From contig JBEBWF010000008.1 in NCBI GenBank assembly GCA_040392285.1, forward strand, positions 15,962 through 79,961: a DNA stretch of 64,000 nt, written 5' to 3'. The translations under genes were made by a program, and so were the position numbers. The notes beneath the pieces were generated by a model, which made no database searches, was not told the origin of the DNA, and saw only the letters and a program-made list of their open reading frames with translations. Shown in pieces: positions 4,548 to 20,002 of the stretch (the first letter of the stretch is position 1; every line of letters starts with the position of its first letter). Source of the DNA: Sphingobacterium sp. (GTDB taxonomy: Bacteria; Bacteroidota; Bacteroidia; Sphingobacteriales; Sphingobacteriaceae).

Positions 4548-5330
4548 TTACCCCACTGCATCTATCAACTTATAGTTTCCATCTTCTTTAATCTCAGGTC
4601 TTCCTATAGCAATAGTTTTGCCGTGATAGAAAAGATACACCCAACCCGCTGGCGCTCCTTCTTTCCAGTACTGAGCGCGTAAATCTCTTGCTAGACGGCC
4701 GTCATAGTCATATTTCGCGATAAAACTCTTGAAAAGCTCTTCTGGTTCGGGCAAGACATCTCCACCGAAGAAAAAATGCTCACCGCCCGTCTCAATATGG
4801 AATACTTGATGATAAGGTGTATGTCCCCCATTCAATTCATAACTGATTTCTGGATTAACCACCCCATCTCCCTCGACCAACGTCAAGTTACCACTACGTT
4901 GCAACACGTCCAATGTTTCGGTATTATAGGAGGAGGAATCGGTGCTGTATGCCCGCTCCCATTCATTACGCTGAATGACATATTCCGCTTCCGGAAATGC
5001 AACACGCCCTGTACCATCCCTAAAATCCACCATTCCCCCAATATGATCTTTGTGAAGATGGGACATCAATACATACCGCACATCTTTCACATCAAAACCC
5101 AGTTTTTTGATATTGTGATGTATCAAAAGTTCATCATCTGCTGTCCGTAATCCTAAACCTGCATCGCACAAGAGTAGCCCATGACTTGATTCGATCAAAA
5201 ATGGATGAACATGGACAAATAAAGAGCCGGGTCGATCTTTAGGGTCATCTTTCTTCGGATCAAAAGGTATAAATTTTTTTGAAATATCTACCGAAAAAGA
5301 TCCTTCAAAAAGGGAGTGTGCTTGCATCAT
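4548..5330 (-). CDS. MBL-fold metallo-hydrolase
   Basis: HxHxDH metal-binding motif is present (SHLHKDHIGG). 260 aa. Confidence 0.85.
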   Translation of the reverse strand: MMQAHSLFEGSFSVDISKKFIPFDPKKDDPKDRPGSLFVHVHPFLIESSHGLLLCDAGLGLRTADDELLIHHNIKKLGFDVKDVRYVLMSHLHKDHIGGMVDFRDGTGRVAFPEAEYVIQRNEWERAYSTDSSSYNTETLDVLQRSGNLTLVEGDGVVNPEISYELNGGHTPYHQVFHIETGGEHFFFGGDVLPEPEELFKSFIAKYDYDGRLARDLRAQYWKEGAPAGWVYLFYHGKTIAIGRPEIKEDGNYKLIDAVG

Positions 5331-5446
5331 CTTTTATTTTATTGTAAATATGAGAGTTATACAAATATGGACAAATACACAGCTTCAGAATTAGGTTACT
5401 ATACCCATAAAACTGTATATTTACGACTAACATACTGCGTAAAGAT

Positions 5447-7147
5447 ATGCAAAAAAGATGGGTCCTAAAACCGAAAAACGACATTGAAAAGGTAAAGAAA
5501 CTACAAACTGAGTTAGGGACCAATACGATTATTGCAGAATTATTGATTAACCGAAAGATCGAAACATTCGATCAAGCCCGCGTATTCTTCCGGCCGAACC
5601 TAGAAGAGCTCCATGACCCTTTCCTGATGAAAGATATGGAGAAGGCTATCCTCCGGATCGAAAAGGCTATCGGTAATAAAGAAAAGATCCTTATCTATGG
5701 TGATTATGACGTGGATGGAACCACAGCAGTAGCGACGGTATTCAGTTTCTTTCGCACATTTCATTCCCGCATTGAATTTTATATTCCCGATAGATATACG
5801 GAAGGATATGGCATATCAAGACAGGGTATCGATTATGCTGCACAAAATGAATTTTCACTGGTCATCGCCCTAGATTGTGGCATCAAGGCTCTCGATAAAA
5901 TTGAATATGCCAACACGCTTGGTATCGATTTTATTATTGGTGACCATCACTTACCAGGCGATCAGATTCCACGGGCAGTTGCCGTCTTAGACCCCAAAAG
6001 ATCCGACTGTGTGTACCCTTATAAAGAACTTTCTGGTTGTGGAATAGGCTTCAAGATTATTCAAGCCTTTGTGAAGAAGAACAATATGAATCCGGATCTA
6101 CCCTACCAGTATCTCGATTTAGTAGCGGTAAGTATAGCATCAGATATTGTTCCCATAACAGGTGAAAATCGGATTTTAGCCCATGCAGGCCTAAACAAGC
6201 TCAACTCAAACCCTAGCATTGGCCTACAAGCTCTTGTCAAATTGTCGAACAATAAGACAGGCATATTTTCTGTAAGTGACATTGTCTTTCAAATTGGACC
6301 TCGGATCAATGCTGCAGGTCGAATTGACCATGCCAAGGACGCTGTAGAGTTATTGATTGCTAAGTCGATCAGCGAGGCGGCTAGCTATTCTTCCGCTGTT
6401 GACGATCAAAATAATATTCGAAAAGACTTTGATCTGCGAATCACCGAAGAGGCGCTCGCTCTGATCGACAATTGCCAGGCAAATATTAAACGCAAATCCA
6501 CCGTACTCTACAAATCCGATTGGCACAAAGGAGTCATCGGTATTGTGGCATCCAGGCTGACCGAAAAATATTACCGGCCTACCGTTATATTGACACGCAC
6601 CAATGGTCATATCGCCGGATCTGCCCGTTCCGTACTAGGCTTTGATCTCTATGAGGCGCTCAGTGAATGCAGTGAACTACTCGATCAATTCGGTGGACAT
6701 AAATATGCTGCTGGCCTCACAATGAAAGAGGAGAATATCCCGCTGTTTCAAGCAAAATTTGAGGATGTTGTTCATAGAAGTATCAAACCGGAGATGCTTC
6801 AACAGGAGATCTCTATGGAACTCACCATTAAACTCCAAGATATCGATAGCAAATTCTATCGCGTTCTCCGCCAATTTGAACCTTTTGGGCCGGATAATGA
6901 GACGCCCATATTTTTTTCCAAACAGGTTGTCCCTTATGGCAAAGCTACAATCGTCGGAAATAACCACTTGAAATTTAGTATCCATCAAGACGAATCTCCA
7001 ATTTTTGACTGTATAGCGTTTGGTCAAGCTGAACACATCGCTATCATAGATAGCAATAGACCTTTTGACATCTGCTATACCATAGAAGAAAATAATTGGA
7101 GGGGAAAGAAGAATTTACAATTAAATATCAAAGGAATACGATATTAA
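5447..7147 (+). CDS. recJ: Single-stranded-DNA-specific exonuclease RecJ
   Basis: DHH-family motifs are present (GDYDVDGTT, LDCG, GDHH) together with a DHHA1-like C-terminal half. 566 aa. Confidence 0.95.
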   Translation: MQKRWVLKPKNDIEKVKKLQTELGTNTIIAELLINRKIETFDQARVFFRPNLEELHDPFLMKDMEKAILRIEKAIGNKEKILIYGDYDVDGTTAVATVFSFFRTFHSRIEFYIPDRYTEGYGISRQGIDYAAQNEFSLVIALDCGIKALDKIEYANTLGIDFIIGDHHLPGDQIPRAVAVLDPKRSDCVYPYKELSGCGIGFKIIQAFVKKNNMNPDLPYQYLDLVAVSIASDIVPITGENRILAHAGLNKLNSNPSIGLQALVKLSNNKTGIFSVSDIVFQIGPRINAAGRIDHAKDAVELLIAKSISEAASYSSAVDDQNNIRKDFDLRITEEALALIDNCQANIKRKSTVLYKSDWHKGVIGIVASRLTEKYYRPTVILTRTNGHIAGSARSVLGFDLYEALSECSELLDQFGGHKYAAGLTMKEENIPLFQAKFEDVVHRSIKPEMLQQEISMELTIKLQDIDSKFYRVLRQFEPFGPDNETPIFFSKQVVPYGKATIVGNNHLKFSIHQDESPIFDCIAFGQAEHIAIIDSNRPFDICYTIEENNWRGKKNLQLNIKGIRY

Positions 7148-7182
7148 CATATCTTTGATAGGGTGCATCGGCTTTTAATTTT

Positions 7183-7190
7183 TAATTTTG
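7183..7190 (+). promoter_or_regulatory. Candidate -7 promoter box TAATTTTG
   Basis: TAnnTTTG match 20 nt upstream of the lptB ATG. Motif match only. Confidence 0.35.
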
Positions 7191-7209
7191 ACTTTTTACT
7201 TCACAATAG

Positions 7210-7950
7210 ATGATACTACGGGCTGAACATTTAATCAAGAAATACAAACAACGAACCGTTGTAAACAATGTTTCTTTTCAGGTAGAACAAGGAGAAATCG
7301 TTGGTTTATTAGGTCCCAACGGTGCAGGAAAAACCACTTCTTTCTATATGATTGTCGGCTTGATCAAACCCAATGATGGGCATGTATACCTGGATCAAGA
7401 AGAAATTACCAAGGATGCGATGTTTCAGCGTGCACAAAAAGGCATTGGGTATCTAGCGCAGGAAGCATCTGTATTTCGAAAATTATCTGTAGAAAATAAT
7501 ATCCTTGCGGTTTTAGAAATACATTACCCTAATAAGGAAGAGCGATTTGCCAAACTAGAAGAACTGCTTACAGAATTCAGCTTACATCGCGTACGAAAAA
7601 ATCGAGGTGATCTTTTATCCGGTGGAGAAAGAAGACGGACCGAGATTGCCCGGGCATTGGCTGCGAATCCTCATTTTATTCTCCTCGATGAACCTTTTGC
7701 TGGTGTTGACCCTATTGCCGTCGAAGAAATACAAACCATTGTCGCTAAGCTAAAATCTAAAAACATCGGTGTGTTAATTACGGATCACAATGTACAAGAA
7801 ACGCTTTCGATTACGGATAGAGCTTATTTACTGACCGAGGGGAAGATCATGCTAACAGGTACTCCGGAAGAAATTGCCGATAGTGAATTGGCACGTAAGT
7901 TCTATTTAGGGCGCAATTTTGTCTTGCGTCGAAAGAACTTTACAATTTAG
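7210..7950 (+). CDS. lptB: LPS export ABC transporter ATP-binding protein LptB
   Basis: Walker A GPNGAGKTT and ABC signature LSGGERRR are present. The 246 aa size and overall sequence are typical of LptB. Confidence 0.9.
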   Translation: MILRAEHLIKKYKQRTVVNNVSFQVEQGEIVGLLGPNGAGKTTSFYMIVGLIKPNDGHVYLDQEEITKDAMFQRAQKGIGYLAQEASVFRKLSVENNILAVLEIHYPNKEERFAKLEELLTEFSLHRVRKNRGDLLSGGERRRTEIARALAANPHFILLDEPFAGVDPIAVEEIQTIVAKLKSKNIGVLITDHNVQETLSITDRAYLLTEGKIMLTGTPEEIADSELARKFYLGRNFVLRRKNFTI

Positions 7951-7958
7951 CAGTAGTC

Positions 7959-9476
7959 ATGGCAATATTAAATTCACTCTTTACATGGATCATGAAAAAG
8001 CGCATTCACCAAATCGAGCTTTTCATGAAATACCCACATGATGTACAAGATGAATGGTTCCAGAATCTGATATCTTCTGCAGAAGCAACGGAATGGGGCA
8101 AAAAGTACGACTACAAAAGTATATTCACCTTAGAAGACTATAAAAACAGAGTTCCTATCAGCGATTATGATGACATAAAGAGCTATATCGACCGAATGAT
8201 AAAAGGCGAGCAAAATATACTGTGGCCTTCGGACATCAAATGGTTCGCCAAATCTTCGGGTACCACGTCTGATCGAAGCAAGTTTATCCCCGTCAGTATG
8301 GAAGCCTTGGAAGAATGCCATTTTCAAGGGGGAAAGGACATGCTTTCCATCTATTGCAGCAACCGACCGGATACGAAGTTATTTACAGGTAAATCGGTCG
8401 TTATCGGTGGTTCTTCGCAAATCAACAACTTCAGCCCCGACTCCTATTATGGTGATTTATCTTCCATATTAATACGCAATCTTCCTTTTTGGGCCGAATT
8501 CAAAAGAACACCGAATATCGAAGTTACACTAAACCCCAACTTTGAGGAAAAAATAGAACAAATCGCACAGATTACGATCAAAGAAGACGTCACCAGCTTG
8601 GCGGGTGTACCCACATGGAATATCGTTATGGCGAAACGCATTTTAGAAATTACCGGTAAAGACAACCTGCTGGAAGTATGGCCCAACTTGGAATTTTATG
8701 GACATGGAGGTGTAAGCTTTAAGCCATACAAAGAACAATTCAAAGCATTGATCCCTTCAGATAACATGTATTTTCTAGAAAACTACAATGCTTCTGAAGG
8801 CTATTTTGGTTTGCAAGATCGCTCTGATTCGGACGATTTGTTACTCATGTTAGATTATGGTATCTATTACGAGTTTCTCCCTACCGAATATCTCGAAGAC
8901 GAACATCCCCAAACATTAGCACTACATGAAGTTGAAATAGGTAAAAACTATGCCTTGATTATCTCGACCAATGCTGGCCTTTGGCGTTATAAGATCGGTG
9001 ATACCATAAAATTCACTTCACTATCACCTTACCGTTTCCAAATCTCAGGACGCACTAAACAATACATCAACACCTTTGGTGAGGAAGTAATTGTTGACAA
9101 TGCAGAACAAGCACTAAGTAAAGCATGTCAAGCTACCAGGGCTACTATCAGAGACTATACCGCAGGCCCTATTTATTTTCGAAAAAATGAAGCAGGCGCT
9201 CATGAATGGGTCATTGAATTTGAAAGACAGCCTTCAGATTTCCAACAATTTTGTGAAATACTGGATAATTCGCTACGCGAGCTCAACTCAGACTATGATG
9301 CTAAGCGCTATAAAGATATGGCCTTATCATTTCCGGTTATACACAATGCTCCATTAAACACCTTTTATAATTGGATGAAATCCAAAGGGAAGCTCGGTGG
9401 TCAAAATAAGGTACCCCGCCTAGCGAATAACCGCGAATACCTTGATACTCTTTTAGAAATGATGAAGGAATTATGA
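7959..9476 (+). CDS. GH3 (auxin-responsive promoter) family adenylating enzyme
   Basis: 505 aa. FAKSSGTTS (an acyl-adenylate-forming P-loop-like motif) and the overall layout are typical of bacterial GH3 family proteins. Confidence 0.85.
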   Translation: MAILNSLFTWIMKKRIHQIELFMKYPHDVQDEWFQNLISSAEATEWGKKYDYKSIFTLEDYKNRVPISDYDDIKSYIDRMIKGEQNILWPSDIKWFAKSSGTTSDRSKFIPVSMEALEECHFQGGKDMLSIYCSNRPDTKLFTGKSVVIGGSSQINNFSPDSYYGDLSSILIRNLPFWAEFKRTPNIEVTLNPNFEEKIEQIAQITIKEDVTSLAGVPTWNIVMAKRILEITGKDNLLEVWPNLEFYGHGGVSFKPYKEQFKALIPSDNMYFLENYNASEGYFGLQDRSDSDDLLLMLDYGIYYEFLPTEYLEDEHPQTLALHEVEIGKNYALIISTNAGLWRYKIGDTIKFTSLSPYRFQISGRTKQYINTFGEEVIVDNAEQALSKACQATRATIRDYTAGPIYFRKNEAGAHEWVIEFERQPSDFQQFCEILDNSLRELNSDYDAKRYKDMALSFPVIHNAPLNTFYNWMKSKGKLGGQNKVPRLANNREYLDTLLEMMKEL

Positions 9477-9481
9477 TGCCA

Positions 9482-10195
9482 TTAGCGCAGGGTTTCTAGG
9501 AATTCAGCAGCTTTCTTGCCTAACTTTCCTGTAATAGGAATTTGTTCCAAGAGTCTTATTGCCTCATCTTTTTGATCTATTTGATGGTAGGATGCCGCAA
9601 GGTAATACTTCGCCTCATCCGCAAATATGGATTTTCCGTCTGCTATCGGGGTGAGTTCTTGAATAGACAAGGACCAGTTTTGCTCACCAAAATAAGTCAA
9701 CGCCGCGTAGTATTGATATTGTAAGATCGAAGGGTCAACCGCAATGAGTGTGTTTAGCATTTCCCGAGCCTCCTCATAAGATTTAGCATTGAATGCCTTC
9801 ACCGCATTTTCGTAGCGCACATTTTCTTCCTGACCGCGAACCACTTCCGATTGCATAGTTGGCAGATCGTATAGGCTATTATCATTCGAGTAAAAGAAAA
9901 ACAAAGAAAAGAACACCAATAAACAAGCCGCTGCTACAATAGGGAGGTATAACTTATATATGTTGGTCGAACTTTTTCTCGACTGTAACACCGCCTGGGC
10001 ATTCTTCAGACTCTTACGCAGCTCGTCTTCCTTCGAATCTAATCTATGCTGAATTATCCCTTGCACCTCCTGCTGCATGCTAACCTCCTGCCTCAATGCC
10101 TCATCTTCCAACAGCTGTTTTTCAAATTGGATTAACTCATCGCCCTCCAAAAGCCCGTCAATATAATCCTGAATTTTGTCTATTTTATTTTCCAT
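9482..10195 (-). CDS. Putative anti-sigma factor with a single TM segment and an extracytoplasmic TPR-like domain
   Basis: The N-terminal helix region (IQDYIDGLLEGDELIQFEKQLLED) is typical of anti-sigma N-domains. There is one TM segment (LYLPIVAAACLLVFFSLFFFY) and a TPR-like C-terminus. It starts 12 nt downstream of the ECF sigma gene. Confidence 0.6.
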   Translation of the reverse strand: MENKIDKIQDYIDGLLEGDELIQFEKQLLEDEALRQEVSMQQEVQGIIQHRLDSKEDELRKSLKNAQAVLQSRKSSTNIYKLYLPIVAAACLLVFFSLFFFYSNDNSLYDLPTMQSEVVRGQEENVRYENAVKAFNAKSYEEAREMLNTLIAVDPSILQYQYYAALTYFGEQNWSLSIQELTPIADGKSIFADEAKYYLAASYHQIDQKDEAIRLLEQIPITGKLGKKAAEFLETLR

Positions 10196-10207
10196 TGCCC
10201 TATCTTT

Positions 10208-10765
10208 TTAAAAAACACCGCTTTGTTTGATTTTCTGTACCAAAGAAGCCATACACTCACTTTTCTTTTTCCGCAGGTAAGCGTAAGAAATACCCATCGA
10301 TTCTGCAATCTGTTCTTGATGCTTCTCGACCAAGCAACGCTTGATGATTTCCTGGCAGCTTTTTCCCAGTGTATCCAACATAGCCATCACTTTGTTTTCT
10401 TTATCCACCTGATGTAAGAGCTGCTCCCACTCCTGCTGTGAATGATCTTCAATATGAAATAAATCATCCGTCGCTTTTGTTACCTGCATTTTTTGATTTT
10501 TTTTCAAAACATTCAGCCATTTGCGTTTGCACACTAAAGCTAAAAAGGCACCAAAGTTGGTTGTTAATTCAAAATCACGATCCCGGGCCATATGGTAGAT
10601 ATCCACCAACGCTTCTTGAAGAATATCATAACCATCATCCGCTGTCCCACTATTCCGCTGAATGAGGGTAACAATTTGCTTGGCATATTTATTATATATA
10701 AGTTGGATGCCCTTACTATTATTTTCTTTTAGATATTGAATATAAATTTGGTCTATGTGCATCAA
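10208..10765 (-). CDS. RNA polymerase sigma factor, ECF (sigma-70 group 4) family
   Basis: 185 aa. A region 2-like segment (DILQEALVDIY) and a region 4 HTH (QEQIAESMGISYAYLRKKKSEC) are present. Confidence 0.8.
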   Translation of the reverse strand: MMHIDQIYIQYLKENNSKGIQLIYNKYAKQIVTLIQRNSGTADDGYDILQEALVDIYHMARDRDFELTTNFGAFLALVCKRKWLNVLKKNQKMQVTKATDDLFHIEDHSQQEWEQLLHQVDKENKVMAMLDTLGKSCQEIIKRCLVEKHQEQIAESMGISYAYLRKKKSECMASLVQKIKQSGVF

Positions 10766-10845
10766 AAAAGAAGTTTATTTGTAAATTTAACAATATTTGT
10801 ATAATTCAAGGAGAATACCTTATTAATATTAATAGAGCGACTACC

Positions 10846-12858
10846 ATGAGACCAATTATGTGCTTGATAACCCTTCTTGCCTGTATCCAGTCCCTTTTTG
10901 CACAAGAGATCGTACCTCCGCCAACGGAAGATACTTTTGAAAGCAAAATCCATACAGAGCTCGTGGAAAACCAGCTGTTGTTCAAGCCTGAATTGAGACC
11001 GTTGGTTCAAATTCCAGGAGGACGTGCGCCCTATTATAGCTATTTATGGGATTTCGGTGATGGCCATTTCAGCACGCAACCAGAACCGTTGCATCAATAT
11101 GCCCAACCCGGCGAATACAATGTGACCTTATATGCCGTTAATAACTACGATTTTGGGCCAAAACCTAAACGGCCCAAAAAAACGGTCGAGGTCACATCTG
11201 CCATTGCTTCAAACACCTCTCCTAACTTATTCGAACAAAATTTCTTCTCGTCCAATGGAACCTTCCAGATTTTCAAGCTATCGGACGCTAAGCCCGGCGA
11301 GGATATCTCGCTCGTCGTAGGTGTCAACACCGCAGGAAAAAGAGGCAAGATCTACATTCTTTCCAACGAAAAAATTGCGGGATTAGATGGCTTTAAGTTT
11401 GCTAACCAAAGTACGTATTACCGAGAGCAAGTAGATAGTTTGCCCCAGCGAAATGATCTTCATAGTATGTGGGCGAATGTCAAGCAATCGACCTTTACCA
11501 AAACTGGAAGTCCCGATTATGGGATAAAAGAAGTTTCTCTTTTTAATAATAGTAATCAAGCTATTAACTATTTCAAAGATCTTTACGGTGCTTACAACAG
11601 CCTAACTGCTTATGATATAGCACCACAAAATACTGATCAACAATTTTCGCTGATTAATTTAGATGTCACGGAAGATATGCTCGCAGATACCAATGCGATC
11701 GTGACTATCACAGGCGTTTTCATTCCCGAGGATGGTATAGCCAATGTGCATCAGGTCGACATACCTGTAGTAAAGTCACATGATCCAAACAAAATGTCAG
11801 TGAAACCGGCGCGTATGAGCTATAGGTTCCAAAGTAAAAATAAAACGCTAACTTATAAGGTCCAATTTCAGAACGATGGGGAAGGTGATGCTCGGAATGT
11901 GCGCTTAGAAATGGCTCTGCCTCCGGAAATCAATAAGGAGACTTTTAGGTTAAGGGCGCTATATCCCCAATGTGACACCTGCCAAACGGCAGGTTCCATG
12001 GGCTGTTATCAGTATTACATCAAGGACGATGGAACATTTGTTTTTCATTTCAAAGATATTGCGCTACCTGGCACTGCTGCCAAAAACATAACGGACATGG
12101 ATAGTACTAAAGGTTTTGTCCTGTTCGATGTAGACATGGAAAAGAAAAAGTTCAGAAACAAATCGTTTAAGTCTTATACCAATATCTATTTCGACAACAA
12201 TCCTCCCATTAAAACCAACATTTCTACCTCAAGGTTTAGACAAATTTTTTCTCCCATCGTTACGGTTGGAGCTACCACGACTTTTGGTACACCTCAGGAA
12301 CATGACGTCAAATACCAATTCAAACCCGGCATGCAAATTGGCTTTGGATTAGCTCCAATGGCCCCGTATAAACGTCCATTTTGGCAAGCAGAAATTTACA
12401 CGAGTTATTACGAACAGAACGGCTCTGTAAACATAAGGGGGATGAAACAAGAAATGTCCTTACCCATAGGAGATGGAGGGAGAATGATGGATGTAATTAT
12501 AAATGCGTACGACAGTTTGGAAACTAGGAAATACCTTTCTGTACAAGTGCCGCTGCAAATAAGATACAATATCAACGCTTGGGTATCTATAGGTGCAGGG
12601 GTATCTTTGCGAAAAGACTTCAATACCTCATATAGTAATACCGTGAATTATCATTATACGGCTGCACAAGGGACGATAGACAATACGCTCTCCCGTGAGA
12701 ACGAGAACATTCAAGCCAAGGATAGCCCAATTAAATATAACCCCTTCTTTGACATTAATATCGGTCGCGTATATATGGGGCCTGCTATAGGTTTTCGAGT
12801 AGCTTATGATAAAAATCAAAAATCTCATAGCGGTATCTATGGTCTTTGGCGTTTCTAA
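10846..12858 (+). CDS. Secreted PKD-domain protein with a C-terminal beta-barrel-like region
   Basis: Signal peptide MRPIMCLITLLACIQSLFAQE is present, as is the PKD signature YLWDFGDGHFS..HQYAQPGEYNVTLYAVN. A beta-sandwich region follows HDPNKMSV. The C-terminus ends in GLWRF (terminal aromatic residue). Confidence 0.75.
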   Translation: MRPIMCLITLLACIQSLFAQEIVPPPTEDTFESKIHTELVENQLLFKPELRPLVQIPGGRAPYYSYLWDFGDGHFSTQPEPLHQYAQPGEYNVTLYAVNNYDFGPKPKRPKKTVEVTSAIASNTSPNLFEQNFFSSNGTFQIFKLSDAKPGEDISLVVGVNTAGKRGKIYILSNEKIAGLDGFKFANQSTYYREQVDSLPQRNDLHSMWANVKQSTFTKTGSPDYGIKEVSLFNNSNQAINYFKDLYGAYNSLTAYDIAPQNTDQQFSLINLDVTEDMLADTNAIVTITGVFIPEDGIANVHQVDIPVVKSHDPNKMSVKPARMSYRFQSKNKTLTYKVQFQNDGEGDARNVRLEMALPPEINKETFRLRALYPQCDTCQTAGSMGCYQYYIKDDGTFVFHFKDIALPGTAAKNITDMDSTKGFVLFDVDMEKKKFRNKSFKSYTNIYFDNNPPIKTNISTSRFRQIFSPIVTVGATTTFGTPQEHDVKYQFKPGMQIGFGLAPMAPYKRPFWQAEIYTSYYEQNGSVNIRGMKQEMSLPIGDGGRMMDVIINAYDSLETRKYLSVQVPLQIRYNINAWVSIGAGVSLRKDFNTSYSNTVNYHYTAAQGTIDNTLSRENENIQAKDSPIKYNPFFDINIGRVYMGPAIGFRVAYDKNQKSHSGIYGLWRF

Positions 12859-12863
12859 ATGGT

Positions 12864-15473
12864 ATGAGAGCAAACTGGTTCCTATACGCAGCATATTGCA
12901 TGAGTTTAATGACTACCTTTCGGTGTACCACCTCAATACCAAAAGAAAACTCTACCGCCGAACTTTCACAAAAAATCACCGTTAATCTCGATTCGATTTT
13001 CGAGTATTTTGAAAATACAGCTGATACATGTCCCCAAAAATACGTAACCAATCCTGATTCCTTCTTTTACAGTTTCGATCTCAATCCTCAATCTTTTGCA
13101 CAAAAAGAGATGTATGCTTATGGATTGATTTTCATGGCTTATGGACTCCGGGAATATGGCGATCATTACAACAGCATAAAATATTACGAAAAGGCATTAA
13201 ATTTCATTCATGAAAACAAACTCGAGGATATTGACACGCAGATTTACATCATCAAGCCCTTAGCCGCTCTTTACACACTGATCGACGATAATCAAAAGGC
13301 CATTCGTCTACTGGAGCAGGTACTGCACAACATCCCGGAGAGCCAACCCATACAGCGCATTGGCTTTGCCAACAATCTGGCCAATGCGTACCTCTATAAT
13401 CGAGATATGGCCCAGGCCAAAGAACTGCTATTAGAGACGCTGGAAATGCCAACACAGTCTTTATCCAGAGCGTTGCTATACAACACACTCTCCACGGTTT
13501 ACAAAGAAGACAACGACGTCGATAACAGTATCAAATACAATAAGCTCGCTTTACAGGAATTTGCGAAAAACAAGCTGTATGGGGACACTTTGGTTTGGTA
13601 CGCATCGGCTTTGGGACAGTATGGCGAAATCCATCACGATTACGCTTCGATCCAACAAGCATGGCAGATCTTAAATGCTAATTTCCCCCATACACAACAT
13701 CGGACAAAGGCTAGCTTACAGCTTGCCAGAGCAAATATCCTTTTTACTAAAAACGAAATTCCGAAAGCGCAAAACACCTATCAGCAGGTCGTCGATATCT
13801 TATCCACCAAAATTGATGATGCTTATACGCTAGACTATACCTATACCCAAGCGCTAGTGGGGCTGGCAAAATGCTCCAGCTTACGGAATAAAATTGATTC
13901 TTCACTTTACTATTTTCAATGGGCGATCGAAAATGACTTTCGTACACAGCAGCTCATTACTAGTAAGATAAACCAAATCGCCAACAATATTTGGAACAGA
14001 GAGATCATCGAAGAAATGGTTGCTTTAGTCGATCGACTATTAATGCAAGAACCGGATAGTCAAGAGGTATTAGAAACATTGCTCTGGTGCATCGAATTAA
14101 GTAAAGGACGGCTCCTCATCAATGAAATCAACCGATCGGAAAATTGGGATAAAGCAGATCCGGCAATAAAAGATGCCATCCGAACGATCCGAAATCTATA
14201 TCAAAAAATCAGTGAATCGAACAGCGAAAGCCAACAACGAGCTCTCCAGCAGCAAATCGATCAACTGATGATCGACTTTCAACTATCCGAACGTTACTTT
14301 GAAACCTACAACTATTCACCAGATAAAATTTCGTTCTTAAAAAACCTAAATGGCCCTAAAAAAAATTACTACAGTTATTTTGTCCATAAGGATAAAACAA
14401 TCACCGTTCTCGGCAGATTGAACAACAGATATGTGTACCACAAAGTTATTGATACGACATTTATGGATCATATCGGACAATTTAAAATCCTATATTTTGG
14501 TGATTCACCAAATAATTACAATCTTGATCCAGTACAGTATTTCGACCAATCACGCCAAATCATACACGAGTTATTACCTGAGATACAGACCGTAAGAAAT
14601 GATATTTGCCTTTCTTTGGATGGACAGTTATACGGTCTTCCCTTTGATGCCTTGTATGAAAATGACTTTCTCGTCAATACGCACAATTTCGCTTATCTCA
14701 ACTCTTTCATTCTATATGATCTGCTGAAAGCGCCGGCAGCAGATCAAACGGATATTACATTATTATATCGATCGACCTTCCCCAAACCCTTGCCCGATTT
14801 GCATTTTGTACATGATGAAGTAAAAAATATAAGTAGAAATTTTAAAAGTCAACAAATTGGGCCAGAAAATCAACAAGACTCTACTATTGTCCAACAATTT
14901 GCTGGCTCTCACATCATTCATATTGCCTCCCATACCGTCTTAGATGGTGAAGACAATCCTATCATCTACCTTCAGCACCCCATATCGACCAAACAATTAC
15001 GCTTTTATCACATTTACTCACCAATGGTATTTTTATCGGCATGCAATACGGGTAGTGGCATATCCCTACCTTCTGAAGGTATGGAAAGTATCCAACGTGT
15101 TTTTCTAGGAAAGGGCGTGCCTTCTGTTATTTCTACCTATTGGTTTGCCAACGATGAGGCGATGCTTCAGCTGACTTCCTTATTTTATCAACAGCTTTAT
15201 CAGACCAAGAGCCCCATAGAGGCGTTAGCTTCCGCAAAAAGAATATTTTTAGCAAGAGCCTCTAATGAACAACAAAACCCCTGGTACTGGGCCAACATCA
15301 ATTATGCTGGTATTGGTAATGAGATAGGCTTGAGGAAAACCTCAAACCTATCGATCTACATCTGTATTAGTGTATTGGTTTTATTGATCTTTATGTGGCT
15401 ATACATCACCTATTCAAGGTCGAATAGCCCTACGGTAAAGAAAGACAAAAAATCCAAAGACAAAACTCACTAA
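12864..15473 (+). CDS. TPR-repeat / CHAT-domain (caspase-fold) protease-like protein with a C-terminal TM segment
   Basis: A long TPR-like helical N-terminal region is followed by the CHAT hallmarks IIHIASHT (His codon 14931-14933) and VFLSACNTGSG (Cys codon 15042-15044). A hydrophobic segment LSIYICISVLVLLIFMWLYITY lies near the C-terminus. The ATG at 12864 is preferred over the TTG at 12846. Confidence 0.85.
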   Translation: MRANWFLYAAYCMSLMTTFRCTTSIPKENSTAELSQKITVNLDSIFEYFENTADTCPQKYVTNPDSFFYSFDLNPQSFAQKEMYAYGLIFMAYGLREYGDHYNSIKYYEKALNFIHENKLEDIDTQIYIIKPLAALYTLIDDNQKAIRLLEQVLHNIPESQPIQRIGFANNLANAYLYNRDMAQAKELLLETLEMPTQSLSRALLYNTLSTVYKEDNDVDNSIKYNKLALQEFAKNKLYGDTLVWYASALGQYGEIHHDYASIQQAWQILNANFPHTQHRTKASLQLARANILFTKNEIPKAQNTYQQVVDILSTKIDDAYTLDYTYTQALVGLAKCSSLRNKIDSSLYYFQWAIENDFRTQQLITSKINQIANNIWNREIIEEMVALVDRLLMQEPDSQEVLETLLWCIELSKGRLLINEINRSENWDKADPAIKDAIRTIRNLYQKISESNSESQQRALQQQIDQLMIDFQLSERYFETYNYSPDKISFLKNLNGPKKNYYSYFVHKDKTITVLGRLNNRYVYHKVIDTTFMDHIGQFKILYFGDSPNNYNLDPVQYFDQSRQIIHELLPEIQTVRNDICLSLDGQLYGLPFDALYENDFLVNTHNFAYLNSFILYDLLKAPAADQTDITLLYRSTFPKPLPDLHFVHDEVKNISRNFKSQQIGPENQQDSTIVQQFAGSHIIHIASHTVLDGEDNPIIYLQHPISTKQLRFYHIYSPMVFLSACNTGSGISLPSEGMESIQRVFLGKGVPSVISTYWFANDEAMLQLTSLFYQQLYQTKSPIEALASAKRIFLARASNEQQNPWYWANINYAGIGNEIGLRKTSNLSIYICISVLVLLIFMWLYITYSRSNSPTVKKDKKSKDKTH

Positions 15474-15548
15474 CCCGAGTTTTTCTCGCTCATCACTTTT
15501 TACAACTGGTTTGTTGGTATTCTTTTTCATATTAAGGTAGTTTTATTT

Positions 15549-17303
15549 TTAAAAATCCAAGACTTTTATTTCAGTACGTCTATTTTCTTGATGTTGTTCT
15601 TCTCGGCAGTCTATACCATTACTACAATTATTTTTAAGTTTAGTTTCACCATATCCTTTTGCAATCAATCGATTTCTCGAAATACCATTGGTGATTAAAT
15701 AGTCAACCGCAGCATCGGCACGACGTTGAGACAGCTTCAAGTTGTAACCATCATTTCCCCGACTGTCCGTATGGGACGATAGTTCAATACGAAGCGATGG
15801 ATTTTGTTTCAGGATCGATACGACATTATCGAGTATCAACGCCGCATCTGGACGGATATCACTTTTATCAAAATCATACAGGATATTTTTTAATTCCCAC
15901 GAACTGTCTTTTGCCAGATCACATACACCCAGTTTCAAGGTTACATATAACGTTTGGCTACGCACTAAACCTACGGTAGACACCATCTCGGTCTGCGAGT
16001 ATTTCGCTTGCTGATTGGCTACGACCGTAAATTCACTTTGTGGCTCCAACTGGTAAATAAATTTACCCTCCACATCAGAGATTTGACTTACATTCACTTT
16101 GCTCATCCTGTTTGTCAGCATGGTATTAACACCACCCATATTCTGCTGGCTTACACAGTCAAAAGTTTCTCCGACCAGCGTAAACCGTGGATCATCGTGA
16201 TAGATTTCTTTAAAAATCACTGTAGAATTACTTTGAAAGTCGGTTTCAGTCAGCACCAATACAGGCGTTCTAATTCCATTTTTTTCACCGACGACTTCGT
16301 AGCGTCCTGGTTTGATATCCGCAATCTTACTCGCTTGACCATTTGCATCGGAAAGCGACTTTTCACTTCGACCATTTCCGTCAATGGATACGACTACCCC
16401 ACTCAACGCCAAATTTGTTTGTTTATCCTTCACAACAATCTGCAATCCTTTTGCCGCCGCTGCAGGTTTAGGGACATCGTCATACTTAACGGGCTCTTCC
16501 TTAATGAGCGGAGCGACAGGTATAGACCTACCAAACACCATCTTCACCCCAACGCCAGCTTGTATTGTCTTGTGAAGCGTTCTGTCCACCGTCTGCTGCT
16601 CTTCGTAATGATCTAAGAAGCGTGTTACAAGTGTCGTCTCATCCACCGGAAGGATTTCCACACTATTACGCACCGTAAACTGACTAGGCTTATTACCGAA
16701 TTTACTACCAAAGGTTTGCACATAATCCACATGGGCAAACAAAGCAATCTTGGGGTTGATCTGATAATTGAATCGTAAACCTCCTAATCCCGCCCAGCTA
16801 TTCACTTTATTTGTTGAATCATTTTCCGTCCACTTCGGATCATAAAGCACCTGATTTCCGGTGCCATCATTATAGGTCATGGTCCTGACATATTCCGGAA
16901 AGTACTGCAACATCACACCTCCTCGCACATAGGCTTCCACATGAAACTTATTTTTGCTCCATTTATATGTTGGACCTATAGTAAAAAGGTAATCCTTGAA
17001 CCGAGCCGGGTTACGATAGTCCGTTCCAAAATGGCCATTTTCAAACTTAAAACTATCTTGCTTGTTGATTCCATTGTAGATATAACGGGCATCCACCCCT
17101 AACCCAAACTTATTCCCCGAAAAATATTTATCGACGAAGAATCCTCTGTAGTACCCTATCTTGGCTTCCCCGATTTTCTTATAGCTGTCCATGGCCACAC
17201 TAGTACCACCTTGAATACCCACTTGAAAGTCTCCTGTTGCACGCTCCTGGGCAAACGACAAAAAGTGGCTCAATAGCATTAAAACAAGTAAAAATCTTTT
17301 CAT
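15549..17303 (-). CDS. OmpA family protein (N-terminal barrel-like, central carboxypeptidase-regulatory-like, C-terminal OmpA/MotB domains)
   Basis: Signal peptide MKRFLLVLMLLSHFLSFAQE is present. The C-terminal OmpA motif is ILYDFDKSDIRPD...SHTDSRGNDGYNLKLSQRRADAAVDYL. Confidence 0.9.
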   Translation of the reverse strand: MKRFLLVLMLLSHFLSFAQERATGDFQVGIQGGTSVAMDSYKKIGEAKIGYYRGFFVDKYFSGNKFGLGVDARYIYNGINKQDSFKFENGHFGTDYRNPARFKDYLFTIGPTYKWSKNKFHVEAYVRGGVMLQYFPEYVRTMTYNDGTGNQVLYDPKWTENDSTNKVNSWAGLGGLRFNYQINPKIALFAHVDYVQTFGSKFGNKPSQFTVRNSVEILPVDETTLVTRFLDHYEEQQTVDRTLHKTIQAGVGVKMVFGRSIPVAPLIKEEPVKYDDVPKPAAAAKGLQIVVKDKQTNLALSGVVVSIDGNGRSEKSLSDANGQASKIADIKPGRYEVVGEKNGIRTPVLVLTETDFQSNSTVIFKEIYHDDPRFTLVGETFDCVSQQNMGGVNTMLTNRMSKVNVSQISDVEGKFIYQLEPQSEFTVVANQQAKYSQTEMVSTVGLVRSQTLYVTLKLGVCDLAKDSSWELKNILYDFDKSDIRPDAALILDNVVSILKQNPSLRIELSSHTDSRGNDGYNLKLSQRRADAAVDYLITNGISRNRLIAKGYGETKLKNNCSNGIDCREEQHQENRRTEIKVLDF

Positions 17304-17612
17304 AACATATCATTTTTAATTCCTACAATATTTATACAGGTGCATTTTTCTGATGTGCCTGTAATTTGTAATCAAGAAGAATGATGAATTGTTACCCTTG
17401 GTTTTTTCTAACAATTATTTGGGAAAATAAAAAAGGTGTTTCGAGGAATATAGGGTAAAATCCTGCCAAAATAGGAAAACTACTAAAAACTTTTTGGCGG
17501 AATATTACCCCTTTTTAAAAAGAAAATTCAATCTTTCATTCGTAAAAACATCTCTTTACAGCGCCTAAACCACGTTTTCACTATTCATCACGCCCATTTC
17601 GGACAATCGAGC

Positions 17613-18116
17613 AACCTTAAGGGGATTTTGTTTTCCCCGAAGTATATTCTGAAAAACCTGAAGGGTTTCCTGTTTACCCTTTGAAGGATTTTGGTACCCA
17701 TGAGGGAACTTATGGAATCCCCTTGGTGTATTAAAAAAAACGTCAAGGAAAGTCCATTTATCCTTTGGCATGTCCTGAAAACCTTTAAGGGAATTTTGTA
17801 TCCCCATTGGAATATTTTAAAATCCTTTAAGGGAATCCTACTTTCTCTTCGATAGATTCTGAAAATCCTCAAGGAGTTTCTGCATTCGCTTTGGTGCAAA
17901 GCAAAATCCCTAAAGCGAATCACGCTTATCCTTTAAAGGATTGTGGAAACCCTTGAGACGCTCCTATGTATACTTCGGTATATTAAAAAAACCTTTAAGG
18001 GAATATTATTTATCCCTTTAGCATATCCTGAAAACCTTTAAGGGAATACGGACTATTCTTTGGGAGATATGGAAAAGCCTCGGAGTTTTGCGAACAATTA
18101 TTGGATAAAACATTTG
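17613..18116. repeat. Degenerate tandem array, 12 units of 41-43 nt (mean 42.0), each with an imperfect inverted repeat AAGGGA/TCCCTT
   Basis: Unit starts read off the sequence are 17613, 17655, 17696, 17739, 17780, 17821, 17864, 17905, 17948, 17990, 18033 and 18075. The best copies share AAyCCTTTAAGGGAAT. The exact 22-mer TCCTGAAAACCTTTAAGGGAAT occurs twice. Confidence 0.8.
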
Positions 18117-18157
18117 TTTCCCAATCAGGAAATTACCACCTTTGTATAAAATTTAGA

Positions 18158-18505
18158 ATGAAGCCGAATTTTGACATTGAGTTATTACCCAAAGCTATTG
18201 AGTTTTTGGAAAACCTTGACGAAAAAACGAGAGAGAAGGTTTATTACAACATCAAAAAATCTCAATTCGTAAACAATAAAGAACTTTTTAAAAAGTTGAA
18301 CGACTTTATTTGGGAGTTTCGAACACTGTACAACAACAGAGCATATCGGCTTTTTTCCTTTTGGGACAAAACGGAGGGCAAAGAAACTTTGATAATTGCC
18401 ACCCATGGTATTTTGAAAAAGACACAGAAAACACCGCCAAAAGAAATTAAGAAAGCCGAAGAAATAAGAAAAGAATACTTGGATAATAAACTAAAAAAGA
18501 AATAA
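18158..18505 (+). CDS. Type II toxin, RelE/ParE superfamily (phage Gp49-like / HigB-like)
   Basis: The sequence MKPNFDIELLPKAIEFLENLDEKTREKVYYNI...WEFRTLYNNRAYRLFSFWDK...IIATHGILKKTQKTPPKEI fits the Gp49-like toxin pattern. The ATG at 18158 is preferred over the TTG at 18101. An HTH gene follows 2 nt later. Confidence 0.85.
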   Translation: MKPNFDIELLPKAIEFLENLDEKTREKVYYNIKKSQFVNNKELFKKLNDFIWEFRTLYNNRAYRLFSFWDKTEGKETLIIATHGILKKTQKTPPKEIKKAEEIRKEYLDNKLKKK

Positions 18506-18507
18506 TT

Positions 18508-18828
18508 ATGGCAGATAAATTCAAAACCGTTTCACTTGACACAATGATTGACAAGCACATTGGACAACGTGGCACAGAAAGACGTGAAGCGTTTGAAAAC
18601 GAGTTACGTATCGACCTGCTGGGGCAGGCCATAAAGCAAGCCCGCCAAGAACGTAATCTTACACAGGAGCAATTAGGCAAGCTTGTAGGCGTACAAAAAG
18701 CTCAAATCTCAAAAATTGAAAATAGCGTAAAAAATGCAAGATTTGAAACTATCTTAAAAGTGTTTGAAGCGTTAGGAGCAAAAGTAAATTTCAACGTAGA
18801 ACTAAACGAGCAAAAAGTGGCTTACTAA
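18508..18828 (+). CDS. XRE-family HTH antitoxin (HigA-like)
   Basis: The HTH_XRE core LTQEQLGKLVGVQKAQISKIENS is present. 106 aa, immediately downstream of the toxin gene (toxin-first order as in HigBA). Confidence 0.85.
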   Translation: MADKFKTVSLDTMIDKHIGQRGTERREAFENELRIDLLGQAIKQARQERNLTQEQLGKLVGVQKAQISKIENSVKNARFETILKVFEALGAKVNFNVELNEQKVAY

Positions 18829-18912
18829 GTAGTATCTTAAAATTATTTCGATGATTTTGAGCTTGCTCTTGATCTTTTTTCCTAAATTGCAGGTCTTAAA
18901 TTACATACAGAA

Positions 18913-19980
18913 ATGAGCGCGACAGATCAATTTTCAATTCGCGTAGAGCCAACACGACAATCAAGACTCTCGCAGGTAGACTTTAACAACTTAAAATTTG
19001 GACAAATCATGTCTGACCACATGCTTGTGGCAGAATACGACAACGGCGAATGGGTGGACGTCAGTATCGTCCCTTACGGCGAATTGTCCATTAGCCCTTC
19101 CATGTCTGCGCTGCACTACGGACAAGCGATATTTGAAGGAATCAAAGCCTATAAATATGCGGATGGAACCGTCAGTATATTTCGCCCGGACAAGAACTGG
19201 GAGCGATTCAACAAATCCGCTACCCGTCTCCAAATGCCTGAAGTCCCGGAAGGAATATTTCTGGATGGATTGAAACAATTGTTAGCTATAGATCGGGATT
19301 GGGTTCCTTCCAGAGAAGGTACATCGCTGTACATCCGCCCTTTTATGTTTGCCACGGAGTCGGCACTGGGCGTACATCCTTCTGTTTCTTATAAATTTAT
19401 TGTGATAACCTGTCCTGTAGGGGCATATTATAGCAAGCCTATTAGTCTGAAAGTAGAAACCCATTACACACGCGCTGCTGAAGGTGGTGTAGGTTTTTCT
19501 AAAAATGCAGGTAACTATGCATTATCGTTGTACCCTACCCAACTTGCAAATAACGAGGGCTATGACCAGATTATGTGGACAGATGCCAAAGAACATAAGT
19601 ATATTGAAGAGGCAGGAACGGCTAATTTAATATTCCGTATCGGCGATACGATCATCACGCCACACGGTGACACGATCTTACACGGTGTAACGCGTCGTAC
19701 GATTATGGAACTTGCCGAAAAATGGGGCTTTAAGGCGGAACAACGAAAAGTTTCCGTCCAGGAGCTGATTGATGGGATCAAAGCAGGTAAGGTTACTGAA
19801 GCCTTTGCTGCCGGAACTGCCGCTACAATTACCCATATCGACAGAATAGGTTTTGAAGGTCAAGATTACACACTTCCTCCTGTTGAAGGACGTGAATTCT
19901 CGAATAAAGTACTTGATTACCTTAATCAATTGCGCTATGGCAAGGTTGAAGATCCTTTTGGATGGAATTTTATCGTTTAG
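18913..19980 (+). CDS. ilvE: Branched-chain amino acid aminotransferase
   Basis: 355 aa class IV aminotransferase. It has HYGQAIFEGIKAYK and the typical C-terminal EAGTANLF-like motif (EEAGTANLIF). Confidence 0.93.
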   Translation: MSATDQFSIRVEPTRQSRLSQVDFNNLKFGQIMSDHMLVAEYDNGEWVDVSIVPYGELSISPSMSALHYGQAIFEGIKAYKYADGTVSIFRPDKNWERFNKSATRLQMPEVPEGIFLDGLKQLLAIDRDWVPSREGTSLYIRPFMFATESALGVHPSVSYKFIVITCPVGAYYSKPISLKVETHYTRAAEGGVGFSKNAGNYALSLYPTQLANNEGYDQIMWTDAKEHKYIEEAGTANLIFRIGDTIITPHGDTILHGVTRRTIMELAEKWGFKAEQRKVSVQELIDGIKAGKVTEAFAAGTAATITHIDRIGFEGQDYTLPPVEGREFSNKVLDYLNQLRYGKVEDPFGWNFIV

Positions 19981-20002
19981 AATTTATGCTATGTCAAGTA
20001 TT

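Follow-up and report, generated by a model that had tools for sequence, protein, structure and literature searches.

A sigma/anti-sigma gene module with a predicted periplasmic TPR-CHAT protease in Sphingobacterium and other Bacteroidota, a putative envelope signalling device

Why a caspase-fold peptidase should be encoded beside, and divergently from, a sigma factor of the extracytoplasmic function (ECF) type and its likely anti-sigma factor is the question raised by one locus in a 64,000-nucleotide stretch of Sphingobacterium sp. DNA (contig JBEBWF010000008.1; the window, hereafter). To our knowledge, CHAT proteases are abundant in bacteria and almost none has a known substrate, and we know of no characterised RpoE/DegS-type pathway in Bacteroidota. 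The original prediction, made from these letters, described a sigma factor, an anti-sigma-like protein, a secreted PKD-domain protein, and a TPR-CHAT protease as one self-contained unit and likened the last to proteases of prokaryotic conflict systems. In the analysis reported here, the module looks like an uncharacterised envelope signalling device of Bacteroidota and not like a cell-suicide or anti-phage system. That its partner proteins are all extracytoplasmic is strongly supported; they comprise an outer-membrane protein with PKD and immunoglobulin (Ig)-like domains, an inner-membrane-tethered TPR-CHAT protein, and an OmpA-like protein linking the outer membrane to peptidoglycan.

All four genes lie where they had been placed, as an open reading frame (ORF) table used to check coordinates and strands reproduced 9482..10195, 10208..10765, 10846..12858, and 12864..15473. 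The sigma and anti-sigma genes are separated by 12 nt, the divergent sigma and PKD genes by 80-83 nt, and the PKD stop and the CHAT gene by 5 nt. The features of the locus are as follows.

9482..10195, minus strand: anti-sigma-like protein, single-pass, 237 aa (ORF, weak TPR and anti-sigma profile matches, transmembrane helix)
10208..10762, minus strand: ECF-type (group IV) sigma-70 factor, 184 aa from ATG (TIGR02937, Sig70_bacteroi1; the ORF extends to TTG at 10765)
10665..10698, plus strand: candidate sigma-dependent promoter for PKD-CHAT (position weight matrix scan, low synonymous variation)
10763..10845, no strand: divergent intergenic region with AT-rich block GTAAATTTAACAATATTT at 10781-10798 (conserved across loci)
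10846..12858, plus strand: secreted PKD/beta-sandwich/DUF7619/DUF7849 protein, 670 aa (Pfam, AlphaFold model)
12864..15473, plus strand: TPR-CHAT caspase-fold peptidase, 869 aa (CHAT profile, conserved dyad, model)
15549..17303, minus strand: OmpA-family outer-membrane protein, 584 aa, convergent with CHAT (PF00691, shared promoter motif)
17335..17363, minus strand: 12-base-pair stem-loop in the OmpA-like gene's 5′ leader (hairpin search, kept in relatives)
17366..17398, minus strand: ECF-type promoter of the OmpA-like gene (motif search, position weight matrix scan, orthologous sites)

Profile searches returned three of the domains named in the original prediction, with CHAT (PF12770) at E=9.5e-35 (120.9 bits, cut-off 24, residues 566-815), PKD at E=1e-9, and the ECF model TIGR02937 at 46.0 bits. 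The His/Cys dyad of the CHAT domain is intact as proposed, H690 and C727 being invariant together with H686 in 21 homologues, and the motifs around them, HIAAHT and FLSACNTG, do not vary among homologues down to 29% overall identity. By profile and dyad, the product is a CHAT peptidase of clan CD, its activity being predicted. The AlphaFold model (predicted local distance difference test, pLDDT, 87.9; predicted template modelling score, pTM, 0.85) begins with a signal helix (residues 3-19) and a disordered tether (21-40), continues with TPR helices (42-495) and the alpha/beta CHAT domain (500-823), and closes with a helix at 829-853, an architecture that as modelled is of the TPR-CHAT/separase type. 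TPR-like repeats do precede the CHAT domain, spanning ~450 aa in the model and not the ~600 aa first claimed. The best matches of a fold search in the PDB were Csx29 (E=5e-13), gRAMP-TPR-CHAT, DdvA (E~6e-11), and separases, all with probability 1.00. PDB sequence searches with the CHAT and anti-sigma profiles found TPR proteins only, and judging from the model, kinship with Csx29, DdvA, and separase is visible only at the level of the fold.

Both ends of the protease carry signals for export or anchoring. Among the 21 CHAT homologues, an N-terminal hydrophobic stretch ends in a conserved Cys (Cys21 in the window), with a canonical lipobox in most of them (LLA-SC, VG-AC) and an atypical one (TF-RC) in the clade of the window, and a C-terminal hydrophobic helix with a Lys/Arg-rich tail is found in 21/21 aligned sequences. 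A signal peptide or lipobox Cys together with a C-terminal transmembrane helix and basic tail also occurs in five distant homologues. We predict a periplasmic protein, tethered by both ends to the inner membrane; its body is placed in the periplasm because the tail is cytoplasmic by the positive-inside rule.

The sigma product has the size and profile of an ECF (group IV) factor, matching TIGR02937 over residues 23-178 of 184 with a score above the cut-off of 42.9, and Sig70_bacteroi1 at E=1e-14; Pfam Sigma70_r2 gave 22 bits, below its cut-off of 24, and no r4 match was listed. The ATG at 10762 is the likelier start over the TTG at 10765, and orthologues 38-94% identical are present in all module loci, always adjoined by the anti-sigma gene.

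That neighbour is a putative class I anti-sigma factor, a role fitted by gene position, size, a single transmembrane helix (~residues 84-103), and an N-terminal helix motif, with weak profile matches (NF052375 E=4e-4 and NF047528 E=6e-4, both far under cut-off). Its N-terminal cytoplasmic helical domain of ~80 aa bears the conserved motif IQDYIDGLL...FE, a juxtamembrane motif LPxMxSxxxRG is also conserved, and a TPR-like domain of ~110 aa follows a periplasmic linker. The extracytoplasmic TPR-like domain proposed earlier thus has matches in the C-terminal third, if weak ones only (TPR_19 E=1.8e-5). In the family alignments, the zinc-binding motif HxxxCxxC is absent from residues 1-80 of every member, and by its sequence the protein stands outside the zinc-binding anti-sigma factors (ZAS). 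The same alignments contain a near-invariant Arg, R120, in the linker between the transmembrane helix and the TPR domain (at least 90% conserved, distant members included), the linker around it being otherwise variable. Profile scans of the module proteins found no FecR, RseB, or PDZ domains, and the re-classification of ECF factors (PMC7826278) makes no mention of CHAT, TPR, PKD, or Sphingobacteria.

The divergent gene encodes a secreted PKD-domain protein, as had been read from its translation, with a signal peptide, a PKD domain at residues 64-100, and an all-beta C-terminal domain in the AlphaFold model (pLDDT 82.5), where beta-sandwich domains are followed by long antiparallel hairpins at 468-669. 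DUF7619 (PF24595; residues 313-461, E=4e-19, 69.6 bits) precedes DUF7849 (PF25233; residues 468-670, E=3e-41, 141.9 bits), and the protein ends in ...WRF. From the all-beta model, the WRF end, and a faint match to OMP_b-brl (E=0.14), we infer that DUF7849 is a putative outer-membrane barrel anchor. The N-terminal domains, whose Foldseek matches are adhesin/pilin-type Ig-like domains, are probably periplasmic, because barrel termini normally are and no linker helix is predicted. A PDB sequence search with the PKD profile found PKD domains only, and Pfam/NCBIfam searches found no Plug, STN, or FecR domain in this protein. A reading as an autotransporter was discarded, there being no match to an autotransporter beta-domain and no helix before the barrel in the model.

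The genes are conserved as a set. An alignment of CHAT homologues scanned against one genome per GTDB species gave 32 Sphingobacterium and Parapedobacter loci, whose gene content was determined by tblastn with the window proteins; anti-sigma, sigma, PKD, and CHAT genes are adjacent and in the same order in 30/30 complete loci. Within Sphingobacterium this synteny proves little, because the flanks (recJ, lptB, GH3, ilvE-like) are conserved as well; in Parapedobacter the upstream flank differs and the module genes stay together. Searching with PKD homologues found the set with unrelated flanks in four further loci (L039, L041, L042, and L044), one lineage being Terrimonas (Chitinophagaceae). A metagenome scan with the PKD alignment, its loci analysed with hidden Markov models built from our own alignments, found the sigma and anti-sigma genes upstream in all loci with enough flank and CHAT downstream in 26/26. 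Inserted genes displace CHAT in three metagenome loci, and in one of these, L063, it lies 5.4 kb downstream of the PKD gene. Four complete genes are present in 56 loci, of which 45 are non-redundant, and every fetched locus with enough flank except one has sigma and anti-sigma head-to-head with the PKD-barrel and TPR-CHAT genes; the PKD gene is the divergent neighbour of the sigma gene in every related locus. The gene-neighbourhood comparison that the original prediction had proposed therefore finds the sigma, anti-sigma, and PKD genes with the CHAT gene in other genomes, and its self-contained module is upheld by a gene order kept across genera while flanks differ. The module is chromosomal and vertically inherited, in soil and gut Bacteroidota. 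Parapedobacter proteins are ~50% (sigma), 47% (PKD), 48% (OmpA-like), 31% (CHAT), and 31% (anti-sigma) identical to those of the window, and the rate of evolution of CHAT and anti-sigma is about double that of sigma and PKD.

Comparison of the divergent intergenic regions exposed a bipartite motif, GGGTAACA-N15-TGATAT(A), directly 5′ of the PKD gene in clade D, the most distant clade (PKD 34-40% identical). A regular-expression search of 1.63 Mb of fetched DNA, covering the 64-kb window and flanks of up to 8 kb, with fetched loci of up to ~18 kb, gave 78 matches against a mean of 4.35 and a maximum of 8 in first-order Markov simulations, an 18-fold excess. Bases outside the search pattern are conserved too, the G before GTAACA being invariant and the A after TGATAT nearly so. 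The -35 block contains AAC, which is typical of ECF promoters. The gene 3′ of the match is the OmpA-like gene in 38 loci (and in the window) and the PKD gene in 14 loci, and for 19 of the remaining 23 matches it belongs to one lipoprotein family of 320-360 aa without a Pfam match. These lipoproteins are absent from the Sphingobacterium loci and the 64-kb window; their genes follow the anti-sigma gene in Parapedobacter, stand between PKD and CHAT in Terrimonas-like loci, and follow CHAT in clade D. Three of the loci are listed here.

L025:3542-4516, minus strand: motif-bearing lipoprotein
L064:10218-11180, plus strand: motif-bearing lipoprotein
L071:12638-13711, plus strand: motif-bearing lipoprotein

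From this co-localisation we infer that the module's sigma factor reads the motif. With an anti-sigma-like gene 12 nt downstream and a motif enriched beside the module genes, the factor also has the genetic setting of an ECF sigma. The OmpA-like gene is, by sequence, a fifth member of the module, because it carries the module's conserved promoter element. In Sphingobacterium, Parapedobacter, and Terrimonas-like loci it runs convergently to CHAT, and its promoter in the window (17366-17398, minus strand) reads GGGTAACA-ATTCATCATTCTTCT-TGATTAC, ~65 nt 5′ of the ATG at 17303. At the orthologous position, 38 other loci, including Sphingobacterium and Parapedobacter, have a perfect GGGTAACA-N15-TGATAT, the window's clade having TGATTA and not TGATAT as its -10 block; relative to the close relative L001, both blocks are kept and the spacer has changed. 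In the product, a signal peptide and an N-terminal barrel-like region are followed by an Ig-like CarboxypepD_reg domain and, at the C-terminus, by the peptidoglycan-binding OmpA domain (PF00691, 73 bits, cut-off 27.2, E=2.7e-20, residues 476-563). The CHU_0125 and PorE equivalog models matched its C-terminal part only, far under cut-off, and neither assignment was retained. Between promoter and start codon lies a 12-base-pair hairpin (17335-17363, minus strand), kept in L001 and L016, which could be a post-transcriptional control element. An Rfam scan of 9000-18200 gave no match, a tandem-repeat search of 17300-18150 found none, and a generic scan for sigma-70 promoters and terminators, uninformative for Bacteroidota, gave fewer matches than shuffled sequence.

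The motif also bears on the divergent pair, which had been predicted to be under the control of the sigma factor. In a position weight matrix scan of the 64-kb window, the two best sites were the OmpA-like promoter and, scoring highest, 10665-10698 on the plus strand (AGGGTAACA-ATTTGCTTGGCATAT-TTATTATA, i.e. an N15 spacer), which lies antisense within sigma codons ~22-33 and points at the PKD gene. Its -35 block AGGGTAACA is identical to that of the OmpA-like site, and the predicted transcription start near 10700 would give a leader of ~145 nt. Because coding constraint could explain conservation at such an embedded site, synonymous variation was measured in 24 unique Sphingobacterium sigma genes. 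Codons 22-26 (ATA TAT AAT AAA TAT) and 30-32 (ATT GTT ACC) have about zero synonymous variation, with a rare Ile codon fixed in 24/24, Val GTT in 24/24, and Thr ACC in 17/17, and the spacer codons 27-29 vary freely, as do codons 19-21 and 33 on either side. Of all 10-codon windows in the gene, codons 20-31 have the lowest value (0.44; mean 1.02), a pattern as expected for a bipartite element on the opposite strand. Terrimonas-like sigma genes carry GGTAACA-N15-TTATCT nine bases away from the embedded site. A sigma-type promoter for PKD-CHAT thus likely lies inside the sigma gene, and if it is real its transcript overlaps the 5′ end of that gene in antisense. The divergent pair probably belongs to the sigma regulon, as proposed, in view of the motif directly 5′ of PKD in one clade and the degenerate copy in the window. 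A second, shallower trough of synonymous variation was observed at codons ~84-108 (entropy ~0.6 against the mean of 1.02).

The AT-rich block in the intergenic region (GTAAATTTAACAATATTT, 10781-10798) probably serves as promoter or leader region of the sigma gene itself, given its fixed distance of ~18 nt from the sigma start, and it stays beside the sigma gene where the spacer expands to ~250 nt. It has no convincing fit to the Bacteroidetes consensus TAnnTTTG, and as a regulon motif (GTAAANNTAANAATATTT) it was rejected, showing no significant enrichment elsewhere in the window. The sigma-PKD spacers of Terrimonas-like loci (L043:6748-7001, L063, L064) are ~200-300 nt long and contain short direct repeats, GTCAAAAG / TTGACTTTTGACTTATTAC.

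An anti-sigma profile search extended the comparison to relatives ~20% identical in Roseivirga, Lentimicrobium, and other Bacteroidota. Six of these distant loci were sampled, five of them with a CHAT gene near the anti-sigma homologue.

L045 (Roseivirga): sigma, anti-sigma, and TPR-CHAT in one direction
L126: TPR-CHAT head-to-head with sigma and anti-sigma
L127 and L125 (Lentimicrobium-type): sigma and anti-sigma head-to-head with two Ig-like cargo proteins of the type IX secretion system (T9SS), then TPR-CHAT
L035: TPR-CHAT 5.4 kb from the sigma/anti-sigma pair

The CHAT proteins of the distant loci have a signal peptide, an LSACNTGSG Cys motif, and a C-terminal transmembrane helix with a basic tail, and L045 and L126 consist of sigma, anti-sigma, and CHAT only. 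Read across all loci, the sequences indicate a constant trio of sigma factor, TPR-type anti-sigma factor, and membrane-anchored periplasmic TPR-CHAT, with secreted or outer-membrane Ig-like partners that vary. In the Lentimicrobium-type loci (L125:3960-6914 and L127:4112-6954, both minus strand), tandem proteins of ~404 aa stand in place of the PKD-barrel gene; they have CarboxypepD_reg/SdrD_B domains and a T9SS C-terminal sorting domain, and the same kind of Ig-like domain is present in the window's OmpA-like protein.

The claim that no characterised system has this architecture holds for the split form, and has to yield where the fused form is concerned, DdvA/DdvS of Myxococcus xanthus being a precedent. 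DdvA carries an anti-sigma domain, a transmembrane helix, and a periplasmic TPR-CHAT in one polypeptide; its TPR-CHAT blocks RseP and has been proposed, unproven, as the site-1 protease of its own linker, a role not shown for lack of an inducing signal (PMC11506125). Its dyad is in a resting geometry and dyad mutants behave like wild type, DdvA/DdvS controls a CBASS/CRISPR island (cyclic-oligonucleotide-based anti-phage signalling; clustered regularly interspaced short palindromic repeats), and the fused form was found by the DdvA authors only in Myxococcota and one Comamonas (PMC11506125). The window resembles it in having an ECF sigma beside a putative single-pass anti-sigma and a TPR-CHAT, periplasmic and inner-membrane-tethered by prediction, with a His-Cys dyad and a model that matches the DdvA structure, as well as in the stepwise anti-sigma proteolysis expected in both with CHAT as site-1 protease, predicted on the window's side. 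It differs in that the anti-sigma factor, with its own small TPR domain, and the TPR-CHAT protein are separate polypeptides, in an anchoring the other way round (N-terminal signal peptide or lipid and C-terminal transmembrane helix), in the lack of zinc-binding CHCC/HxxxCxxC in the anti-sigma factor, in partners that are outer-membrane PKD-barrel and OmpA-like proteins and not a CBASS/CRISPR island, in a TPR arrangement that must differ given low overall template modelling scores (~0.25), and in belonging to Bacteroidota. With the sigma and PKD genes lying between two separate genes, and a CHAT protein that lacks an anti-sigma domain, the module is plausibly a functional analogue or split variant of DdvA and not a member of its family.

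In type III-E CRISPR systems, the TPR-CHAT protein Csx29 cuts Csx30, which inhibits CASP-sigma, a factor of the ECF type (PMC10028731; PDB 8EEY, 8EEX). For this complex, craspase, it is established that a TPR-CHAT protease lifts the inhibition of an ECF-type sigma factor, and Csx29 is the best structural match of the window's CHAT protein (template modelling scores 0.44-0.51). Craspase is, however, cytoplasmic, RNA-guided, and bound to Cas7-11, and Csx29 has none of the export and membrane-anchor signals of the window protein. No cas-like ORFs were found in 5000-22000 or in related loci, nor any CRISPR array or Csx30/Csx31 homologues, which places the module outside craspase systems. It is likewise no gasdermin system, there being no adjacent gasdermin gene and the neighbours being PKD-barrel, OmpA-like, sigma, and anti-sigma genes.

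Classical ECF systems offer a further comparison. RseA is cut by DegS and then RseP, RsiW by PrsW, and FecR by Prc. The window shares with these a putative single-pass anti-sigma factor with an extracytoplasmic domain and, as predicted here, outer-membrane proteins as cue and regulon and a dedicated envelope protease as the signal-gated first step. It differs in its candidate site-1 protease, a caspase-fold cysteine peptidase where the others have serine or metallo-proteases, whose gene belongs to the module and which is not accompanied by FecR, RseB, or PDZ domains. Trans-envelope signalling of the FecA/FecR/FecI type includes the SusC-like/anti-sigma/ECF sets of Bacteroides. Here too a putative outer-membrane beta-barrel, with a probably periplasmic N-terminal extension, is divergent from the sigma/anti-sigma pair and plausibly both sensor and target, but the barrel is the ~200 aa DUF7849 and not a 22-strand TonB-dependent transducer, and there is an extra protease gene. 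Since Pfam/NCBIfam searches found no Plug, N-terminal signalling domain, or FecR/DUF4880 in the PKD-barrel or anti-sigma protein, the module falls outside this class. Literature searches on periplasmic CHAT of Bacteroidota, CHAT in Sphingobacterium, DUF7849, or this gene set found nothing relevant.

By analogy, there is in our estimate nearly an even chance that CHAT is a regulated protease that acts on the anti-sigma factor and thereby releases the sigma factor for an envelope regulon. At rest, the anti-sigma factor would hold sigma at the inner membrane. An envelope cue, read by the TPR surfaces and/or the outer-membrane PKD-barrel protein, would activate CHAT, which would clip the periplasmic linker of the anti-sigma factor, possibly at R120, as the site-1 cut with which the usual two-step proteolysis of membrane anti-sigma factors begins. 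Intramembrane proteolysis would follow and free the sigma factor, which would then transcribe the OmpA-like gene, PKD-CHAT, and, in other clades, the 320-360 aa lipoprotein gene, with the envelope remodelled or reinforced as a result. The regulon step is supported by the motif and the localisation by sequence and model; the steps from cue to cleavage are our proposal. A functional interaction of anti-sigma and CHAT is predicted because DdvA holds the same domain inventory in fused form, and the mechanism would in effect be DdvA/DdvS split into two polypeptides and a periplasmic counterpart of the Csx29-Csx30 step. Many clan CD peptidases cut after Arg, and R120 is the candidate cleavage site.

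Several points weigh against this proposal. The cleavage of anti-sigma by CHAT is drawn from gene neighbourhood and from the fused DdvA, itself unproven for autoproteolysis, and the assignment of the motif to the module's sigma factor is drawn from co-localisation. The -10 block is degenerate in each of the window's two motif copies, which score under every training site, and the anti-sigma N-terminal domain has no significant match among solved anti-sigma domains. Mirror-tree analysis gave its highest partial correlation, r = 0.32, for the anti-sigma periplasmic part and the CHAT domain (other pairs at most 0.15), a weak signal from non-independent pairwise distances that comes without a valid significance test and is at most a weak hint of co-evolution. 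One locus, L038, keeps sigma, anti-sigma, PKD, and lipoprotein genes with no CHAT within 7 kb, where it may have been displaced, as in L063, instead of lost. Finally, the motif precedes CHAT in two clades (5′ of PKD-CHAT in clade D and 5′ of lipoprotein-CHAT in Terrimonas-like loci), a position no less fitting for an output enzyme than for a sensor.

That last point leads to the rival in which CHAT is an output of the regulon, a periplasmic peptidase for processing, maturation, or quality control, or a transpeptidase, as some clan CD enzymes are, and the anti-sigma factor is inactivated otherwise; CHAT would then act on co-regulated envelope proteins, whether the PKD-barrel or OmpA-like protein, the lipoprotein of 320-360 aa, or, in Lentimicrobium-type loci, the T9SS-cargo Ig-like proteins. 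The tight coupling of CHAT to the PKD gene, which becomes overlap in other loci, speaks for it, as do the place of CHAT behind the sigma-type motif in clade D and Terrimonas-like loci and at the end of the L125/L127 operon that starts with two secreted Ig-like proteins, and the state of L038. Yet the sigma/anti-sigma pair stays the same across clades where the neighbour of CHAT differs (PKD-barrel, lipoprotein, T9SS cargo, or none), L045 and L126 have no gene beyond the trio, and the DdvA fusion joins TPR-CHAT to an anti-sigma domain and not to cargo (PMC11506125); we regard an output enzyme as less likely than not, and as the main rival.

A mainly non-catalytic TPR-CHAT, acting as a scaffold or steric partner that binds the TPR domain of the anti-sigma factor and, for as long as it is not displaced, blocks site-2 proteolysis, or that bridges the inner membrane to the PKD-barrel protein, with its dyad rarely or never used, would recall the resting dyad geometry, the wild-type behaviour of dyad mutants, and the bulky RseP-blocking domain of DdvA (PMC11506125), and the ~450 aa TPR surface and the anchors at both ends would suit it. 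We consider it improbable, as the invariance of His, Cys, HIAAHT, and FLSACNTG down to 29% identity, with the Cys motif kept in distant homologues, argues for selection on catalysis. More improbable still is a role in conflict, phage defence, or cell death, with a caspase-like protease that, once activated, kills or arrests the cell, the analogy with craspase and gasdermin-activating proteases that had been drawn originally. TPR-CHAT proteases do act in defence systems (PMC10028731), DdvA/DdvS controls its CBASS/CRISPR island (PMC11506125), and the twofold faster divergence of CHAT and anti-sigma (~31% against 47-50% for sigma and PKD in Parapedobacter) also speaks for this reading. Against the analogy stand the export signal and C-terminal anchor of a CHAT domain predicted to be periplasmic, a PADLOC scan that matched none of the four module proteins, gasdermin models included, and the gene neighbourhoods, since the loci examined have no cas, gasdermin, CBASS, or other effector gene either within the module or next to it. 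Within the genus the module has one conserved chromosomal position among housekeeping genes (recJ, lptB, ilvE-like) with no hallmarks of mobile elements, and the motif-bearing genes encode structural envelope proteins. The OmpA domain did match the MotB-like ZorB models of PADLOC, a generic match with no defence assignment.

Returning to proteolytic release of the sigma factor, we would tentatively, and with somewhat less than even confidence, extend it to a phylum-wide, hitherto undescribed pathway of Bacteroidota for envelope sensing or envelope stress, in which a periplasmic TPR-CHAT takes the DegS/PrsW/Prc role and makes the first cut in a TPR-type anti-sigma factor, possibly after the linker Arg, with the PKD-barrel protein as sensor or pseudo-substrate. 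If this is true, TPR-CHAT gating of ECF sigma factors would, with craspase and DdvA, be a general and ancient principle on both sides of the inner membrane. Craspase and DdvA, the latter still unproven, are the two understood CHAT cases, and each of them ends at an ECF sigma factor. The present module is not a categorically new principle; it is a widespread and experimentally accessible form of it. It is simpler and genetically separable, with protease, anti-sigma factor, sigma factor, and candidate sensor or targets as distinct genes in the culturable, non-fastidious Sphingobacterium and Parapedobacter, and it offers a promoter motif as reporter and a single near-invariant Arg. Work on it could settle whether periplasmic TPR-CHAT domains act as site-1 proteases and could reveal how Bacteroidota monitor the outer membrane.

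A few further observations concern the surroundings of the module. A metagenome contig (L047, PJTO01000017.1, 359,814 bp) has the same module, with 99% identity to the window across the PKD gene, and is probably from the same or a sister strain, in a Sphingobacteriaceae lineage near Sphingobacterium sp. SGG-5. On the other side of the anti-sigma gene, a GH3-family (acyl-acid amido synthetase-like) gene at 7959-9476 on the plus strand ends 5 nt from the anti-sigma stop, convergent with it; the gene is kept in the Sphingobacterium flanks and lies outside the module elsewhere. Beyond the OmpA-like gene, a toxin-antitoxin-type cassette at 18101-18828 on the plus strand consists of a HigB-like (Gp49/DUF891, E=1.4e-15) and HTH_3 (E=7e-14) pair, within a stretch of ~1.6 kb between the OmpA-like promoter and the ilvE-like gene. 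Other Sphingobacterium loci lack this stretch, and in them the ilvE-like gene follows within ~200 nt.

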